This document shows positions 50,916 through 60,053 of a stretch of 64,000 nucleotides of DNA, piece by piece. The notes beneath the pieces are model-generated. The model worked only from the letters and a program-made list of their open reading frames with translations, was not told where the DNA came from and made no database searches. How positions within the stretch are numbered: position 1 is the stretch's first letter; each line of letters starts with the position of its first letter. Both the position numbers and the translations under genes were made by a program. Where the stretch lies: sequence record NC_054919.1. One strand, written 5' to 3'. The DNA comes from Escherichia phage vB_EcoM_G4507.

Positions 50916-55035
<4,120 letters not shown>

Positions 55036-55065
55036 TTTGAATAAATATCCTTAAAAGGAGGGTCT

Positions 55066-55722
55066 ATGGCAGCACCTAGAATATCATTTTCGCCCTCTGA
55101 TATTCTATTTGGTGTTCTAGATCGCTTGTTCAAAGATAACGCTACCGGGAAAGTTCTTGCTTCCCGGGTAGCTGTCGTAATTCTTTTGTTTATGATGGCG
55201 ATTGTTTGGTATAGGGGAGATAGTTTCTTTGAGTACTATAAGCAATCAAAGTATGAAACATACAGTGAAATTATTGAAAAGGAAAGAAATGCACGCTTTG
55301 AATCTGTCGCCCTGGAACAACTCCAGATAGTTCATATATCATCTGAGGCAGACTTTAGTGCGGTGTATTCTTTCCGCCCTAAAAACTTAAACTATTTTGT
55401 TGATATTATAGCATATGAAGGAAAATTACCTTCAACAATAAGTGAAAAATCACTTGGAGGATATCCTGTTGATAAAACTATGGATGAATATGCAGTTCAT
55501 TTAAATGGACGTCATTATTATTCCAACTCAAAATTTGCTTTTTTACCAACTAAAAAGCCTACTCCCGAAATAAACTACATGTACAGTTGTCCATATTTTA
55601 ATTTGGATAATATCTATGCTGGAACAATAACCATGTACTGGTATAGAAATGATCATATAAGTAATGACCGCCTTGAATCAATATGTGCTCAGGCGGCCAG
55701 AATATTAGGAAGGGCTAAATAA
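55066..55722 (+). CDS. t: Holin T
   Basis: 218 aa, same length as T4 T; single TM segment VAVVILLFMMAIVWY and large periplasmic domain. Confidence 0.9.
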   Translation: MAAPRISFSPSDILFGVLDRLFKDNATGKVLASRVAVVILLFMMAIVWYRGDSFFEYYKQSKYETYSEIIEKERNARFESVALEQLQIVHISSEADFSAVYSFRPKNLNYFVDIIAYEGKLPSTISEKSLGGYPVDKTMDEYAVHLNGRHYYSNSKFAFLPTKKPTPEINYMYSCPYFNLDNIYAGTITMYWYRNDHISNDRLESICAQAARILGRAK

Positions 55723-55995
55723 TTATTTGTTTGTATACATTTCTAAATATCTATATACACCCTCAAAACCCTCGTTGAATTCGTCGATGAGGGTTTTCTT
55801 ATCTTCTTGAGTTAATTCAGAAACAATTTTACGGAATGAATTCTGATTTAATTTTCTACCTTCATGCGTTACTCCAATCTCATTCAGAAATGCAATAAAA
55901 TTAGCACGATTTTCAACAATATCTTCTCTGGAAAATTTAATCAAAATAGACGCAACAGTAATAATTTCACGAACTGTATCAATGTTTTTATTCAT
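55723..55995 (-). CDS. asiA: Anti-sigma-70 factor AsiA
   Basis: 90 aa; MNKNIDTVREIITVASILIKFSREDIVENRANFIAFLNEIGVTHEGRKL matches T4 AsiA. Confidence 0.9.
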   Translation of the reverse strand: MNKNIDTVREIITVASILIKFSREDIVENRANFIAFLNEIGVTHEGRKLNQNSFRKIVSELTQEDKKTLIDEFNEGFEGVYRYLEMYTNK

Positions 55996-56007
55996 TAACT
56001 ATACCAC

Positions 56008-56160
56008 TCAATTAGTTGACTTTATTATAATATCATCAGACGCTTGATTTGTAAACTGGTCTGTGTTATTTTCTTCAAAAATTTTTTCTACGAATTCCTT
56101 GAACGACTTACGTTCCTGAGCTACATTATGCTCGATTACCTTTTCAAGATTATGACTCAT
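56008..56160 (-). CDS. Small hypothetical protein (about 50 aa), below the ORF-track cutoff
   Basis: Hand-translated MSHNLEKVIEHNVAQERKSFKEFVEKIFEEN...; start overlaps the arn stop (ATGA); coordinates approximate. Confidence 0.35.
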   Translation of the reverse strand: MSHNLEKVIEHNVAQERKSFKEFVEKIFEENNTDQFTNQASDDIIIKSTN

Positions 56161-56435
56161 TCGAAATAATCTTCAATTTCATAATGATGGACATAAATCA
56201 TTATAGTTTTTAATACATCATCAATACTTTTTCCTGGAGCTGGAATTACGTAAAAACACCCTGCTTTTGAGAGGTCTTTATAAGTTCCAATCAAGAAATC
56301 ATTATTCTCAAGATGTAGTTCTTCAACTAATTCATTAACAATTGAGTGGTATAAATTTGGTAGAAACTTATATAGCTTTTCTAGAATATCAATTTTGATT
56401 GTGTATTGAACCACAGACTGAGAATCAATAATCAT
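56157..56435 (-). CDS. arn: Arn-like anti-restriction protein (McrBC inhibitor) candidate
   Basis: 92 aa, same length and position as T4 Arn next to asiA; identity by synteny and size only. Confidence 0.55.
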   Translation of the reverse strand: MIIDSQSVVQYTIKIDILEKLYKFLPNLYHSIVNELVEELHLENNDFLIGTYKDLSKAGCFYVIPAPGKSIDDVLKTIMIYVHHYEIEDYFE

Positions 56436-56518
56436 AGACCTTCCCCTTATGTTTCTGTTTGCGATTAGATTCTTTAAACGCTTTCTTCTTATCCTTATGA
56501 ACAGAAGCTTTATTGAAA

Positions 56519-56737
56519 TTATGTTTTGCGACTAAATTGTTCATAGTGCTGAATTACCTCTCTCAAACATTTGCATGTGAATGAAAACTTTTTAGCTACA
56601 CCACATTCAAATATATGTTCTCTTAAATCGCGTGTATCGGTATATCCCATCTCAACAATAAAATGCCGTATTAGATTTTTATCTTTATCATTGAGAGAAT
56701 TAAAATAATCAGATTTTGAATTAATTTCCCTGGCCAA
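56519..56737 (-). CDS. Hypothetical Cys-containing protein
   Basis: 72-aa ORF (ECGVAKKFSFTCKC). Confidence 0.5.
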   Translation of the reverse strand: MAREINSKSDYFNSLNDKDKNLIRHFIVEMGYTDTRDLREHIFECGVAKKFSFTCKCLREVIQHYEQFSRKT

Positions 56738-57017
56738 ATTGAATCACCTTCAGTTGACGTTTTAATTCTTTTATCATTTCTTCGTTCATCGCAATATAAA
56801 GATCGCGTAAAGCAGGTTTTAGCATTCCATTTACTGGAGAACTAAATGGACATACATAATCTTTTCCTACAAGCTTTTTGGCAAATTCCATATCACAAAA
56901 TTTAAATGCCGGCTCATTCGCATAAATTCCCCAATTAGTTGACATCATTTTATTGGCATATTCTAGTGCCTGGATTTGATTCATAATTCCATCGATTTGA
57001 AACTTTTTAATATTCAT
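56721..57017 (-). CDS. Hypothetical protein
   Basis: 98-aa ORF coupled to neighbours. Confidence 0.5.
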   Translation of the reverse strand: MNIKKFQIDGIMNQIQALEYANKMMSTNWGIYANEPAFKFCDMEFAKKLVGKDYVCPFSSPVNGMLKPALRDLYIAMNEEMIKELKRQLKVIQFGQGN

Positions 57018-57478
57018 TAGTAAAGGTCCTCAGAGTAAAGTTCTTTTTCACTACCACCACGTTCAATACGTACTTGTCCAGCGTAAGTTGCAATAATCAT
57101 TGCTTCTTCACGTGTCCAATAATTACTATATTGGTCAATAAACCCTTGGTCATCATCACAAACTTGTTGAGTAACTAATTGAGGTTTAACTACATCTAAA
57201 ACTTCTGCCATATCTTTAGAATAATGACGAGCACCTGGAATAATAAGAGTTCGTCCATCTTTTAATTTAAAACGGTTGGCTGCACAGACAATTCGTCGTT
57301 GATACTTTTGATTTTCATCCCAATATGCAGTCTGCCAACAGATTTCAGGAACTTCTTTTAGAATATCTTCTTCTGTGCATTTATAACCGTGTGCTTTAAA
57401 CTTTTGAACAAGACTTTCTGGAGTTTCACGAGATAAAGGAACATTCAGCATTTTTAAACGATTGATAAATGGGTTCAT
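57017..57478 (-). CDS. Hypothetical protein
   Basis: 153-aa ORF coupled to neighbours. Confidence 0.55.
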
Positions 57479-57804
57479 TTAAACCATCCTTTAATACGTT
57501 GCCACAAAGTTTTCTGCTGAGCTTTGTTAACACCAATTGAACGAATAACCGGTTGAGATTCCTGGAATTCTTTATAATCGGCAAGGTAAATTTCGTAAGC
57601 TGCATCCGTAAATGAACTTATCGCTGCCATAAAATTATTGCGAATACCTACTGGAGCATCTTTACTTTCACGAATAATCATGTATTTACCAGTCTTAATC
57701 TTTACGATAGTTCCAAGATAAGCTCCATGGTACCAAATATCCCAACCCTCTTGAGTAGGTTCTGCGCAACGACGAAGTTCATTAACAATTTCTAACTTGT
57801 TCAT
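57475..57804 (-). CDS. Hypothetical protein (motA.1 position)
   Basis: 109-aa ORF immediately after motA. Confidence 0.55.
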
Positions 57805-57814
57805 TATTTATTCC

Positions 57815-58450
57815 TCACAGTTCAGATGCTACAGTGATTACAGCTTCAATGTTTTCTGCCGAGCGTTTAATGTCAAGATACACATTACCGTTTTTAGCGA
57901 TTTTACATGACATTCCGATATCAGTAAATTTCTGAATATGATGTTCCATCATTTTGTATCCAAAAATTCGCATATTTCCATTGTTGTTAATTTCAAAATT
58001 ACGAATTCCGTGAGTACGTTTTTCTAAAATAGCGAGATAGTTACTGCGGTAAGTTTCAACCTTTTTAAGAACAAATCCATTTTCATCTAAAAGTTTTAAC
58101 ATGAGGTCTTTATCTTCTTCCATATCGGAAGTAATCTCACGAGCTTTACGAGTTGCTCGTTTTTTCAGCAGTTCCGGAGCATTTTCCTGTGCGTATAAAG
58201 TTGCTGCATTTGAAATAATATCCTGAGCTTCACCTGTAATGATTAATCCATCACCAGATTTCTCCACCAGGCCTTTTTTAATCAATACCCCAATATTACT
58301 ATTAACTACTGCGTTACCTAAATCTGGATGCACCTCACGAACTTCTGCAGCTGTAATGAAATCTTTCTTAGCAATGGTAATTAAAATCGCAGCAGTTTTT
58401 TCATTCAGAACATCGTTAGAAGCTTTGATGATGTAAGTTACTTTAGACAT
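57815..58450 (-). CDS. motA: Middle-mode transcription activator MotA
   Basis: 211 aa, same length as T4 MotA; N-terminus MSKVTYIIKASNDVLNEKTAAILITIAKKDFITAAEVREVHPDL. Confidence 0.9.
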   Translation of the reverse strand: MSKVTYIIKASNDVLNEKTAAILITIAKKDFITAAEVREVHPDLGNAVVNSNIGVLIKKGLVEKSGDGLIITGEAQDIISNAATLYAQENAPELLKKRATRKAREITSDMEEDKDLMLKLLDENGFVLKKVETYRSNYLAILEKRTHGIRNFEINNNGNMRIFGYKMMEHHIQKFTDIGMSCKIAKNGNVYLDIKRSAENIEAVITVASEL

Positions 58451-58480
58451 TTTCTAATCTCCGTAATTCTGTATCAGTAG

Positions 58481-58521
58481 TTGATAGTTGTATAGTACCA
58501 CAGTATGCTTTGGTTGTAAAC
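58481..58521 (-). promoter_or_regulatory. Early promoter for motA (GTTTAC, 18 nt, TACTAT)
   Basis: Minus strand GTTTACAACCAAAGCATACTGTGGTACTATACAACTATCAACTAC; coordinates approximate. Confidence 0.5.
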
Positions 58522-58553
58522 CGTTTTGTGAAAAAATTTTTGAAATAAAAAAA

Positions 58554-58573
58554 GGGAGAGCCGAGGCTCTCCC
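58554..58573. terminator. Hairpin gggagagc-cgag-gctctccc
   Basis: 8-bp stem flanked by A-run and T-run. Confidence 0.6.
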
Positions 58574-58578
58574 TAAAA

Positions 58579-58728
58579 TTACTGCATGACTGTGATAACT
58601 GTCATGATAACACGTTGAATTCCGAACGCAAGAAGACCTCCTGCTACGGCTGGAACAACGCCTAAACCCGCCAGTAAAATGCTACCAGATACTAATGCAG
58701 CGCTTGTAATACCAATGAATGGACTCAT
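58579..58728 (-). CDS. Small hydrophobic membrane peptide (52.1 position), 49 aa
   Basis: Hand-translated MSPFIGITSAALVSGSILLAGLGVVPAVAGGLLAFGIQRVIMTVITVMQ; start overlaps gene 52 stop (ATGA). Confidence 0.45.
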   Translation of the reverse strand: MSPFIGITSAALVSGSILLAGLGVVPAVAGGLLAFGIQRVIMTVITVMQ

Positions 58729-60053
58729 TTAATTTCCTCTAAATCTTTGGTGTATTCAGTAACTACATCAGTAGTTTTCCAATATTCGTTTTCTTCTTTT
58801 TTAGCTTTAGCTTCTTCAGCAAGTTTCTTTGCTTCGTCGGAAGTCATATGAAAAATATTCATTCCAACTAGTTTATCAACATAAGAAGAATACATATCGA
58901 TTTTCGAAAGTTCTTCGGTCAGTTCTTTACGAGTTTTACCCTGTACAACAATTTCACCTGAAATTACTTTCTTAATGAAATGTGCCTTGGCAAAGGCTAA
59001 ACGAAAAGCTGACTCAGTTTCTTTAATTTTGTTATCAATTCGTTTTTGGACATAAGTTTTACGAACTTCGACGAAGTCTTTGATTAAATCAACTACGTTA
59101 TCGTAAACTTGTAGCTTTCCTTTCTCATTAATAACTGTAATATTCTGGGAACGACGCTCAATCAACCCGAAGTCTTTCATAATTTTTGCATGACGTTCTT
59201 CTTCATTATCGCTCAAAGAATATTCTTTGCGGAATTTAACTTTAAAGCCGAAGCCGTGCTCACCACAAGCATCATCCCATGTAATGAAGCCTTTATCTTC
59301 AAGCGGGTCTAAGATTTTACTCACATAAGTTTCACGATCATACTTATACGGAATCTCAGTGATATGCATTTGAGTTCGTGAAGTAAACTTGTACGTTCCA
59401 CGAATTTCATATTGACCGTCAATCTCAACGACTTCACCACGAAATTCTGGGAATTCTACCTTCGGTTTAGTTACTTTCTTTCCTTGAAGAGCTTGCAGTA
59501 CAGCTTTCTTAACAGAAGAAACACTATGAGGAAGAATGTAAGTTGCATAACCAGTTGCAATACCGGAAACGCCATTAAGAAGAACAGTAGGAATAATAGG
59601 CAAATAGAAAGCAGGCGGAATGTGTTCTTTATCTTGATGTACCGGAGCATATTCAGTATCTTTATATACGTTATAGAAATTTTTACTTACACGAGCAAAA
59701 ATATAACGACTTGCTGCTGCCTTTTGGACAGTACGAGAACCGAAGTTTCCTTGACCATCTAACAAAGGAAAGTTATTATTCCAAGTATTAGCCATCAAAG
59801 CGCCTGCGTCTTGTGCAGAGTTTTCGCCATGGTGATATCCAAGGTCCGCTACACCACCTGCAATAGAAGCGAGTTTGTGAAACTTATCTTTATTTCCTCG
59901 TGCCAAATCAAGAGCTCGAGCAATAACAAATCGTTGAACTGGCTTAAATCCATCAATCATATTTGGGATAGCACGATTTTCAACCGTGTACATAGCATAA
60001 GCCAATGCTTCATTATCAATGATACTTTTTAAATCGCGATTATTCAGTTGCAT
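58725..60053 (-). CDS. 52: DNA topoisomerase II medium subunit gp52
   Basis: 442 aa, same length as T4 gp52; MQLNNRDLKSIIDNEALAYAMYTVENRAIPNMIDGFKPVQRFV. Confidence 0.95.
   Translation of the reverse strand: MQLNNRDLKSIIDNEALAYAMYTVENRAIPNMIDGFKPVQRFVIARALDLARGNKDKFHKLASIAGGVADLGYHHGENSAQDAGALMANTWNNNFPLLDGQGNFGSRTVQKAAASRYIFARVSKNFYNVYKDTEYAPVHQDKEHIPPAFYLPIIPTVLLNGVSGIATGYATYILPHSVSSVKKAVLQALQGKKVTKPKVEFPEFRGEVVEIDGQYEIRGTYKFTSRTQMHITEIPYKYDRETYVSKILDPLEDKGFITWDDACGEHGFGFKVKFRKEYSLSDNEEERHAKIMKDFGLIERRSQNITVINEKGKLQVYDNVVDLIKDFVEVRKTYVQKRIDNKIKETESAFRLAFAKAHFIKKVISGEIVVQGKTRKELTEELSKIDMYSSYVDKLVGMNIFHMTSDEAKKLAEEAKAKKEENEYWKTTDVVTEYTKDLEEIK

Follow-up and report, generated by a model that had tools for sequence, protein, structure and literature searches.

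The interval between asiA and motA of Escherichia phage vB_EcoM_G4507 raises the question of which of its small open reading frames are genes and what their products do for the phage. The window analysed is a stretch of 64,000 nucleotides from this phage (NC_054919.1), with the interval at positions 55996-57804. A sequence-only reading of the same DNA had called a 92 aa frame Arn from its size and synteny, and had described five further frames of about 50-153 aa as uncharacterised and translationally coupled. Our analysis makes it very probable that the interval corresponds to the arn cluster of a Tequatrovirus of the T2 type, comprising a DNA-mimic Arn, an mRNA carrying a site for the host sRNA ArcZ, and six genuine companion genes (asiA.1, orf39, arn.1, arn.2, arn.3 and arn.4).

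Gene content and transcription of the interval

The flanking asiA and motA calls of the earlier reading are borne out by Pfam matches to AsiA, MotA_activ and MotCF (Table 1), and AsiA has 100% amino acid identity with AsiA of T4 and T2. Between these boundaries the frames are tightly packed, every one of them on the minus strand, and most of their starts and stops overlap. In transcription order there is a 10 nt gap at the motA/arn.4 junction, then six successive overlaps from arn.4 to asiA.1 (4, 1, 17, 26, 11 and 4 nt), and finally a 12 nt gap between asiA.1 and asiA; Shine-Dalgarno motifs lie 5' of most starts in the cluster. The overlaps are compatible with translational coupling of the cluster genes. 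As to the earlier claim of coupling, the overlaps (1-26 nt at six junctions) are present and the coupling itself is deduced from sequence; we infer it, like the operon and transcript structure and the promoters, from the sequence together with work on T2 and T4.

Each frame of the interval matches a PHROG family (E 1e-23 to 1e-74) and is conserved in phage records numbering from hundreds to more than 1000, with the companions present in 1000-1581 of them. By sequence comparison the interval frames are evidently real genes rather than chance frames, and the companions are protein-coding genes under purifying selection. Read from motA to asiA, the cluster consists of seven small same-strand genes, namely arn.4, arn.3, arn.2, arn.1, orf39, arn and asiA.1. 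The five further frames of the sequence-only reading are thus recovered, at 50, 72, 98, 153 and 109 aa, but a sixth, of 39 aa, had been overlooked. The word uncharacterised holds in so far as the companions are listed as function unknown, and as hypothetical proteins in T4, but the cluster is a named and long-annotated one in T-even phages.

T4 (NC_000866) and T2 (LC348380) are annotated with these genes in an identical order, and over 2.7 kb the arn region shows 97.8-98.7% DNA identity with T2 and other Tequatrovirus genomes; the cluster and the role of Arn are already known and belong to T-even textbook biology, and two preprints of 2026 deal with this operon. Further afield, all T4-like contigs with both MotA and AsiA retain the order motA-arn.4-arn.3-arn.2-(arn.1)-orf39-...-asiA, and the slot between orf39 and asiA ranges from about 220 to 1100 nt with an ORF content that differs by lineage. 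In one contig group the identities of orf39 and Arn.4 are 87% and 84%, respectively, as compared with 81% for topoisomerase gp52. A narrow-pattern scan of genome contigs returned a single contig, from a metagenome-assembled genome, and says little about the wider family.

Table 1. Positions of genes and sequence elements in and around the asiA-motA interval, in order of transcription
Feature	Positions	Strand	Basis
Terminator-like hairpin upstream of motA	58574-58553	-	Consensus scan
Early-promoter-like site upstream of motA, after the hairpin	58520-58492	-	Consensus scan
motA, activator of middle transcription, 211 aa, upstream boundary	58450-57815	-	Pfam MotA_activ 203, MotCF 224 bits
arn.4, intact, 109 aa	57804-57475	-	Homologues of 107-119 aa cover 100% of query
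arn.3, 153 aa	57478-57017	-	phrog_839
arn.2, 98 aa	57017-56721	-	phrog_1844, E 7e-51
arn.1, 72 aa from TTG 56737 (or 43 aa from ATG 56650)	56737-56519	-	phrog_4452
Predicted ArcZ (host sRNA) pairing site GGCCAGGGAAAU	56735-56724	-	Best ArcZ-seed duplex in operon
GCAUU motif, proposed RNase E site in T2	56666-56662	-	Sequence read directly
orf39, 39 aa basic peptide, DUF7230	56544-56425	-	Pfam DUF7230, phrog_1359
arn, 92 aa, predicted DNA-mimic inhibitor of McrBC	56435-56157	-	3WX4, Pfam DM_Arn
Perfect 14 nt inverted repeat	56353-56340 (inside arn) and 56013-56000 (covers asiA Shine-Dalgarno)	-	Sequence search
asiA.1, 50 aa, acidic (pI 4.9)	56160-56008	-	phrog_3762, E 1.6e-37
Sigma-70/T4-early-type promoter-like site inside asiA.1 (GTTTACA, 17 nt, TGnTATTAT)	56055-56027	-	Consensus match only
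asiA, anti-sigma-70 factor, 90 aa, downstream boundary	55995-55723	-	Pfam AsiA 144.6 bits

The hairpin and the promoter-like site 5' of motA likely represent the 5' limit of the transcription unit. The promoter-like site inside asiA.1 is the region's best consensus match (10/12, with an extended -10 TG), and could drive a short asiA transcript. In read-through transcripts the helix formed by the 14 nt inverted repeat might hide the asiA ribosome-binding site: it closes the minimum-free-energy fold of 56370-55985, and the repeat is retained in all nine close relatives, where a single C-to-U change leaves a G-U pair. Statistically the repeat is weak, some 14 nt perfect inverted repeat being found in 18 of 300 shuffles. 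We do not claim a MotA-box middle promoter, the candidate TGCTTTA at 56814 having a non-canonical 9 nt spacer to TATATT, and an Rfam scan of 55000-59000 gave nothing credible.

Arn and its divergence

The identification of the 92 aa frame as Arn stands. Aligned over its full length with crystallised T4 Arn (PDB 3WX4) it is identical at 88 of 92 residues (96%; E 1e-53), it scores 175.2 bits against Pfam DM_Arn (PF22134; cut-off 26 bits), and it has the acidic character that had been looked for, with 15 acidic and 7 basic residues, a net charge of -8 and a pI of 4.76. McrBC inhibition and DNA mimicry are described for T4 Arn (review PMC12707154), and McrBC inhibition by T2 Arn is implied via mcrC suppression. 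Judged by its near-identity to the studied T4 protein, the window Arn is most probably an inhibitor of McrBC; it would block this type IV restriction enzyme and so protect hydroxymethylcytosine DNA that lacks glucose.

Four substitutions distinguish the protein from T4 Arn (F13I, Y60C, N70S and D84H). I13 and S70 represent the T2-type allele, C60 and H84 differ from T4 and T2 alike, and no phage record was found with an Arn at 99% identity to that of the window. N70S in T4 Arn abolishes inhibition of PUA-Cal-HAD (PMC12871103). The window Arn lacks the N70 of the inhibiting, T4-type alleles and has S70 as in T2, and is therefore predicted not to inhibit PUA-Cal-HAD, the defence that T4 Arn blocks.

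Searches by tblastn with Arn give matches only at identities of at least 88%, and the Pfam DM_Arn model misses the acidic proteins at the equivalent position in other T4-like genera. Profile-profile comparison links Arn to these proteins at 96% probability, which argues against its confinement to Tequatrovirus. Across genera the identity falls to 13-32%; this fast divergence of the positional homologues fits an arms race, and the divergent proteins are natural variants for specificity studies.

The six companions and their possible roles

The 39 aa product of orf39 has a net charge of +9 and a pI of 10.2, matches Pfam DUF7230 (PF23876) at 44.9 bits (cut-off 27 bits), and is present in 1195 phage records with the consensus MNN[LP]VAKHDFNK..HKDKK...RKQKHKGK. 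It is missing from the T4 RefSeq annotation, yet the T4 frame is 100% identical, and substitutions at codon positions 1, 2 and 3 number 167, 145 and 498. Most likely this basic peptide binds nucleic acid or an acidic partner; its lysine-rich motif also suggested an ArfA-like ribosome-rescue peptide, an idea set aside for want of PDB or Pfam support. asiA.1 is annotated as AsiA.1 in T4 and T2, and its N-terminal MSHNLE motif recurs, in other T4-like genera, in the ORF that lies 5' of asiA (12/28 identical). The arn.2 family comprises 23 protein clusters (precomputed family PF26819), and where other T4-like contigs have a homologue at the equivalent position it is 33-65% identical.

The arn.4 frame is intact in the window and in nearly all relatives other than the reference T4 and T2. 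It is disrupted in T4 by a change of the start ATG to ATA and in T2 by a 2 nt deletion, and the annotations of both phages hold the C-terminal 68 aa only, in T4 because the start codon reads ATA; conservation within the protein is highest over the N-terminal 41 aa. As arn.4 is broken in T4 and T2, knock-down or deletion in those strains cannot reveal the function of Arn.4, and it is phages like vB_EcoM_G4507 that can. An AlphaFold2 model (pLDDT 83.9) gave no assignable fold in a PDB fold search (best E 0.64).

Arn.3, one residue shorter in T4, has a variable N-terminal helical part followed by a core of about 95 aa that is conserved (residues 58-153). It has an invariant His/Arg/Asp/Glu/Gln pattern, and the invariant residues include H85, G112, F113, R123, L147 and E150. 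Its family, of 3381 clusters, extends to many unrelated phages, among which are jumbo phages as well as contigs of about 40 kb, and is found in 1 of 72,556 plasmid records; it is a very large and almost phage-only family, most likely of a small enzyme or ligand-binding domain. The AlphaFold2 model is confident (pLDDT 90.7), and a PDB fold search with it again gave no assignable fold (best E 0.11, TM <0.25). The structure of this very large and phage-specific family is thus predicted with confidence, yet it matches no known fold or function. Marginal matches (E 7e-3 to 4e-2) are seen between the model and a 'large polyvalent protein associated domain' segment in three uncultured-phage proteins; no named LPD Pfam family matches Arn.3 or 146 family members, and the polyvalent-protein paper of Iyer et al. 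2017 (PMC5512222) does not mention Arn.3. Among those 146 diverse members a Pfam scan found one RMF fusion and one DFF-C match, and in ten long proteins with a C-terminal Arn.3 domain the N-terminal parts have no Pfam match and match only PHROGs of unknown function. The 90 neighbouring ORFs in unrelated phages include no recurrent partner (DUF4326 occurs twice, and NADAR, dGTP_diPhyd_N and DUF488 once each).

None of the companions has a significant PADLOC, Pfam, NCBIfam or PDB match with an anti-defence or defence-linked role; matches to a Nif11 leader, Prok-E2_B, PD-T4-9_B, REase_II and TNF ligand are short and non-significant and are put down to chance. The database label on arn.1-arn.4, 'anti-restriction nuclease', looks like a name carried over from arn; they match no nuclease or anti-defence family. 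In a T2 preprint (10.64898/2026.06.19.733364), as in the annotation table of CRISPRi-ART, arn.1-arn.4 are given as function unknown, and we found no paper that mentions PF26092, PF26819, PF26821, DUF7230 or phrog_839. In the T4 CRISPRi-ART screen all companions score 'Not Fit', and they are dispensable for T4 in the laboratory host, with which the disruption of arn.4 in the reference T4 and T2 agrees. Our best guess is that the companions would be conditionally useful accessory proteins of early host takeover or counter-defence, which is the default reading, since neither homology nor a fold match nor a recurrent gene neighbourhood points to an activity.

One way of narrowing this reading, in line with the sequence-only reading, which saw the block as a place to look for further anti-restriction functions, is to regard the companions as additional anti-restriction or anti-defence proteins, and the whole block as a counter-defence island, a role that the T2 preprint authors call 'conceivable' (10.64898/2026.06.19.733364). 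The companions share one operon-like unit with Arn, their dispensability in the laboratory host also speaks for it, and arn.4 has been inactivated in the long-propagated reference strains of T4 and T2. The weak fold match of Arn.3 points the same way, as large polyvalent proteins are proposed to act in early host conflicts (PMC5512222), but it is marginal, and the only two PADLOC matches to companions are short and non-significant (E 0.003-0.005). The pace of change also counts against it: orf39, Arn.4 and Arn.3 evolve slowly and stay syntenic across genera where Arn does not keep its sequence, and in their strong conservation orf39 and Arn.4 differ from typical fast-evolving anti-defence genes such as Arn. 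The presence of the Arn.3 domain in many unrelated phages argues against a role specific to McrBC or hydroxymethylcytosine, and its near absence from plasmids also speaks against the island. We therefore consider a counter-defence island possible but on balance unlikely.

A different proposal is that the conserved companions serve host takeover tied to the MotA/AsiA switch, acting on RNA polymerase, nucleoid, RNA or ribosome, and that Arn, evolving fast, is a passenger in the variable slot just upstream of asiA. The invariant gene order and the lineage-specific ORFs between orf39 and asiA described above speak for it, and the very high conservation of the basic orf39 peptide, the small, conserved and helical-looking Arn.1 (72 aa), and the fusion of one distant Arn.3-family member to a ribosome modulation factor domain are consistent with it. 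However, no companion has homology with a factor of transcription, the nucleoid or the ribosome, phages without MotA/AsiA commonly carry the Arn.3 domain and there it has inconsistent neighbours, and knock-down in T4 is without fitness defect. This proposal, too, can be held only tentatively, and the broader reading of the companions as accessory proteins is the one we retain.

The arn.1 start, the ArcZ site and known systems

The T4 and T2 annotations of arn.1 give the last 43 aa only, from ATG 56650. It appears from sequence conservation that this entry is mis-annotated and that Arn.1 is really 72 aa, which phrog_4452 (72 aa) covers end to end. A good Shine-Dalgarno, AAGGTG at 56750-56745, lies 7 nt 5' of the TTG, whereas ATG 56650 has almost none. 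Residues 1-29 (KSDYFNSLN..K..I..FI.ELGY) are kept as protein in T4-like contigs that are only 54-73% identical in DNA there, and in close relatives 100% of the nucleotide changes in these 29 codons are synonymous. Divergent homologues have Leu in place of the annotated Met30, with the single exception of L007, and open with ATG at the upstream position. That the 29 codons, or orf39, are untranslated and that the stretch serves as a regulatory spacer without coding function, in line with the T2 ArcZ model, is very improbable in view of this conservation and of the third-position bias of orf39 substitutions, even though the reference annotations start arn.1 at the ATG and that of T4 omits orf39, the upstream start in Tequatrovirus is TTG, and the preprint read its reporter results with the spacer as non-coding (10.64898/2026.06.19.733364).

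[quoted passage not shown] With an ArcZ sequence verified by Rfam RF00081 (120.8 bits), the site predicted in the window forms a duplex of -19.6 kcal/mol in its core and -26 when extended, as compared with an operon mean of -10.3 (sd 3.3), and it occurs in 9/9 Tequatrovirus loci as against 0/33 of the other T4-like loci. By analogy, the cluster mRNA would have the site by which ArcZ guards against RNase E in T2. The T2 model has as a premise that arn.2 and arn.1 are separated by 70 nt of non-coding sequence. This is contradicted here, as the stretch encodes conserved residues of the 72 aa Arn.1, a coding nature that the preprint does not consider (10.64898/2026.06.19.733364). Our comparison indicates that the '70-nt intergenic region' codes for the N-terminal part of Arn.1, so that the ArcZ site overlaps the arn.1 start codon; it covers the last arn.2 codons together with the start codon and codons 2-5 of the 72 aa frame. 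The GCAUU motif, 11 nt 5' of the annotated arn.1 ATG, falls inside codons 24-26. The location of the ArcZ site and the RNase E motif in or at the start of a real Arn.1 frame bears directly on the current T2 regulatory model.

A bolder idea, which we think doubtful, is that the companions and not Arn are the evolutionary core of the module, with Arn.3 a small enzyme or ligand-binding domain of unsolved fold that unrelated phages use in their thousands, orf39 a very highly conserved basic peptide whose target is host nucleic acid or an acidic partner, and the arn.1 start a direct target of ArcZ. If it were true, the T2 model would shift from protection of a spacer to control of translation and decay at an overlapping stop/start junction, and at least one companion would be the first of a new class of factors for phage takeover or counter-defence.

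Among known systems, T4 Arn is matched in length, in acidity and in location between orf39/arn.1 and asiA.1. T7 Ocr and ArdA resemble Arn in placing a negatively charged protein in the DNA-binding site of a restriction enzyme (PMC12707154), but they are non-homologous and target type I/BREX systems rather than McrBC (PMC12707154), and no companion ORF is similar to them. With the T2 arn operon (10.64898/2026.06.19.733364) the cluster has in common an identical gene set and order, ArcZ site CCAGGGAAAT, GCAUU motif and 70 nt spacing; the two differ in arn.4, which carries the 2 nt deletion in T2 and is intact, at 109 aa, in the window.

The asiA-motA cluster and its Arn allele

The interval between asiA and motA is already known, since its gene cluster is annotated and the phage type is known. 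DNA identity across the 55.7-58.5 kb region is 97.8% with phage T2 and reaches 98.7% with other Tequatrovirus genomes, and the region is covered to at least 80% in 476 phage records. All cluster genes from motA through asiA lie on the minus strand, and we have named them after the T4 and T2 records, where gene set and order are identical. From motA to asiA the junctions comprise a gap of 10 nt, overlaps of 4, 1, 17, 26, 11 and 4 nt, and a gap of 12 nt, with a Shine-Dalgarno motif upstream of most starts. The sequence-only reading, which had described an Arn-sized 92-aa ORF and five further, translationally coupled ORFs, is accurate overall except for the ORF count, as the 39-aa ORF, the seventh, was left out. 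The worthwhile by-products are a corrected Arn.1 frame with its ArcZ-site overlap, an arn.4 that is intact, an overlooked gene (orf39), homologues of Arn that have diverged in other genera, and an Arn.3 family that is large and a structural orphan.

Features of the cluster, its surroundings and related loci (window positions unless a fetched locus, L, is named)
Feature	Position	Strand	Remarks
motA.1	58579-58728	-	49 aa
terminator-like hairpin	58553-58574		
motA	58450-57815	-	211 aa
arn.4	57804-57475	-	109 aa
arn.4 locus, L002	3128-3467		
arn.4 locus, L001	3251-3578		
arn.3	57478-57017	-	153 aa
arn.2	57017-56721	-	98 aa
arn.1	56737-56519	-	72 aa from TTG; 43 aa from ATG 56650
ArcZ site	56733-56724		CCAGGGAAAT
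GCATT	56666-56662		
orf39	56544-56425	-	39 aa
arn	56435-56157	-	92 aa
inverted repeat, arm in arn	56340-56353		14 nt
asiA.1	56160-56008	-	50 aa
promoter-like site	56055-56027		consensus match only
inverted repeat, arm near asiA	56000-56013		asiA Shine-Dalgarno region
asiA	55995-55723	-	90 aa
gene 38	54247-55035	+	262 aa
Arn-like ORF, L020	5571-5831		
Arn-like ORF, L022	5994-6272		
Arn-like ORF, L031	5952-6230		
Arn-like ORF, L010	5860-6141		
Arn-like ORF, L037	5632-5895		
Arn-like ORF, L027	5779-6057		

Alignment with the T4 Arn structure 3WX4 over 92 residues, 88 of them identical (E 1e-53), establishes that the 92-aa ORF is Arn, as had been proposed. It scores 175 bits against Pfam DM_Arn (cut-off 26 bits) and is acidic, with a net charge of -8 and a pI of 4.76. 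T4 Arn inhibits the restriction of non-glucosylated T4 by McrBC; in the current model it binds McrB as a DNA mimic, and H-NS is a further binding partner (review PMC12707154). Judged by near-identity to T4 Arn, the mechanism of the window protein is known. The window Arn differs from T4 Arn by F13I, Y60C, N70S and D84H, and from T2 Arn by Y60C, F80I and D84H, so that Y60C and D84H set it apart from both; its best match among phage records is 97.8% identical, and none reaches 99%. The T2-type S70 has been linked with loss of inhibition of the PUA-Cal-HAD defence (preprint PMC12871103), and by this residue-70 criterion the window Arn, which carries S70, would be of the non-inhibiting T2 type.

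Outside the interval, gene 38 is a T2-type adhesin with glycine-rich stretches, which marks the phage as T2-like, not T4-like, at the tail-fibre tip; GC content rises locally to about 0.52 there, against 0.30-0.37 in the rest of the region. On the other side, the end of topoisomerase gene 52 overlaps a hydrophobic ORF (motA.1 of T4 and T2). After this ORF come a strong terminator-like hairpin, an early-type promoter (both consensus matches only) and motA.

The arn.1 reading frame and the ArcZ site

The arn.1 frame is open upstream of its annotated ATG as far as a TTG, which has AAGGTG ahead of it at 7-nt spacing; the ATG has almost no Shine-Dalgarno sequence. Divergent T4-like contigs with 47-72% Arn.1 identity conserve the 29 upstream residues at the protein level (KSDYFNSLN..K..I..FI.ELGY). 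In all of these homologues but one (locus L007) the annotated Met30 is Leu, and an ATG occupies the upstream position, as in MMRIID or MPRTIY. Among close relatives, nucleotide changes in the 29-codon stretch are all synonymous. The 43-aa arn.1 of T4 and T2 appears to be mis-annotated, and these comparisons support a 72-aa protein instead.

[quoted passage not shown] The ArcZ site, the GCATT and the 70 nt from the arn.2 stop to the annotated arn.1 ATG are all unchanged from T2. We confirmed the ArcZ sequence in 5417 of 5426 E. coli genomes (Rfam RF00081, 120.8 bits), and the best predicted duplex of its seed in the 2.8-kb unit falls exactly at the arn.2 site (core -19.6, extended -26 kcal/mol; mean -10.3, sd 3.3). 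The site occurs in 9 of 9 fetched loci from Tequatrovirus and in 0 of 33 from other T4-like phages. With the upstream frame of arn.1 conserved, the 70-nt 'intergenic region' of the T2 model is itself coding if Arn.1 has 72 residues: the GCAUU RNase E motif corresponds to codons 24-26, and the ArcZ site spans the last base of the TTG, arn.1 codons 2-5 and the final arn.2 codons. This arrangement suggests that ArcZ acts at an overlapping arn.2 stop/arn.1 start junction, and the 72-aa reading is compatible with the preprint's data.

Further downstream there is a perfect 14-nt inverted repeat between arn and the asiA Shine-Dalgarno region. It is retained in 9 close relatives with one change to G-U and belongs to the minimum-free-energy fold, but is statistically weak, some 14-nt repeat occurring in 6% of shuffles. 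The repeat and a good promoter-like site that lies upstream of asiA, within asiA.1, might together mean that asiA is translated only from a short transcript.

Conservation of the module

When all window proteins were mapped on 78 related viral contigs, the order motA-arn.4-arn.3-arn.2-(arn.1)-orf39-...-asiA was retained in every T4-like contig with MotA and AsiA. Within the interval, conservation is highest for the orf39 protein, at 63-92% identity in nearly all contigs compared with about 50% for AsiA and MotA. It is basic (+9), belongs to DUF7230 and is present in 1195 phage records, although the T4 RefSeq record leaves it without annotation. Its substitutions by codon position (167/145/498) show a strong third-position bias, the mark of a protein under clear protein-level selection.

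BLAST confines Arn matches to Tequatrovirus (483 records, each at least 88% identical). In other T4-like genera the ORF right after orf39 closely resembles Arn, with 86-99 aa, a pI of 4.1-4.4 and an ending in DLEDYF, FEDYL, DIGDYL or similar motifs; the table gives examples among others. Neither BLAST nor Pfam DM_Arn detects these proteins, but profile-profile comparison aligns them with Arn over the full length (96.1% probability, E 3e-9, 88 columns). Homology of this kind suggests that Arn evolves fast as part of a conserved module, where it occupies a variable slot (about 220-1100 nt) upstream of asiA. AsiA.1 and the ORF preceding asiA elsewhere have only an N-terminal MSHNLE motif in common.

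In Arn.3 about 95 residues (58-153) form a conserved core, in which H85, G112, F113, R123, L147 and E150 are invariant and R84, Q111, D115, Q135, S149 and a C-terminal ...SEDLY nearly so. The family comprises 3381 clusters (50% identity, E up to 1e-3). Its members are found in only 1 of 72,556 plasmids but in 1581 phage records, among them those of jumbo Pseudomonas and Erwinia phages, Salmonella phages (about 157-160 kb) and contigs (about 40 kb). In nearly all multi-domain members listed the domain is the extreme C-terminus, ending in ...SE.LY. One distant member, from the alignment of family representatives, has a ribosome modulation factor (RMF) domain (Pfam E 9e-6). AlphaFold2 models Arn.3 with confidence (pLDDT 90.7). 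The model has no fold match in the PDB (best E 0.11); among predicted viral structures it matches only uncharacterised proteins, apart from marginal matches to three 'large polyvalent protein' entries. A local copy of Pfam returned no family match to the Arn.3 domain in Arn.3 and 146 relatives, and no consistent clue was found among fusion partners and gene neighbours. From the polar residues among those conserved, Arn.3 may be an enzyme or possess a ligand-binding site.

Role of the companion genes and comparison with T4 and T2

Two readings of the genes accompanying arn are equally plausible. The first, common to the sequence-only reading and the T2 authors (10.64898/2026.06.19.733364), is that they are further anti-restriction genes. 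This is a reasonable proposal. In its favour are their operon context, the loss of arn.4 in laboratory strains and their dispensability in the laboratory: when T4 was screened by CRISPRi-ART, asiA.1, arn and arn.1-arn.4 all scored 'Not Fit', i.e. dispensable in the laboratory host (PMC11879866 supplement). However, orf39, Arn.4 and Arn.3 are strongly conserved, unlike the fast-evolving Arn, and Arn.3 is spread among phages with unrelated DNA biology. The second reading is that the companions are host-takeover factors tied to the MotA/AsiA switch. Searches with Arn.2, Arn.1, orf39 and AsiA.1 gave no informative match, and none with the arn.1-arn.4 proteins matched a nuclease or anti-restriction family. 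Many GenBank records label arn.1-arn.4 homologues (window 56519-57804) 'anti-restriction nuclease', which looks like a carry-over of the arn gene-name expansion.

The arn.4 gene is intact in the window and in most relatives. Homologues of 107-119 aa cover its whole frame, the N-terminal 41 residues being best conserved, and at least 80% of it is covered in 995 of 1000 phage records; the Arn.4 model (pLDDT 83.9, core above 90) has no fold match in the PDB. The reference strains T4 and T2 are annotated with an arn.4 of 68 aa because in T4 ATA replaces the ATG start and in T2 a 2-nt deletion shifts the frame, with the result that full Arn.4 is probably missing from both laboratory strains.
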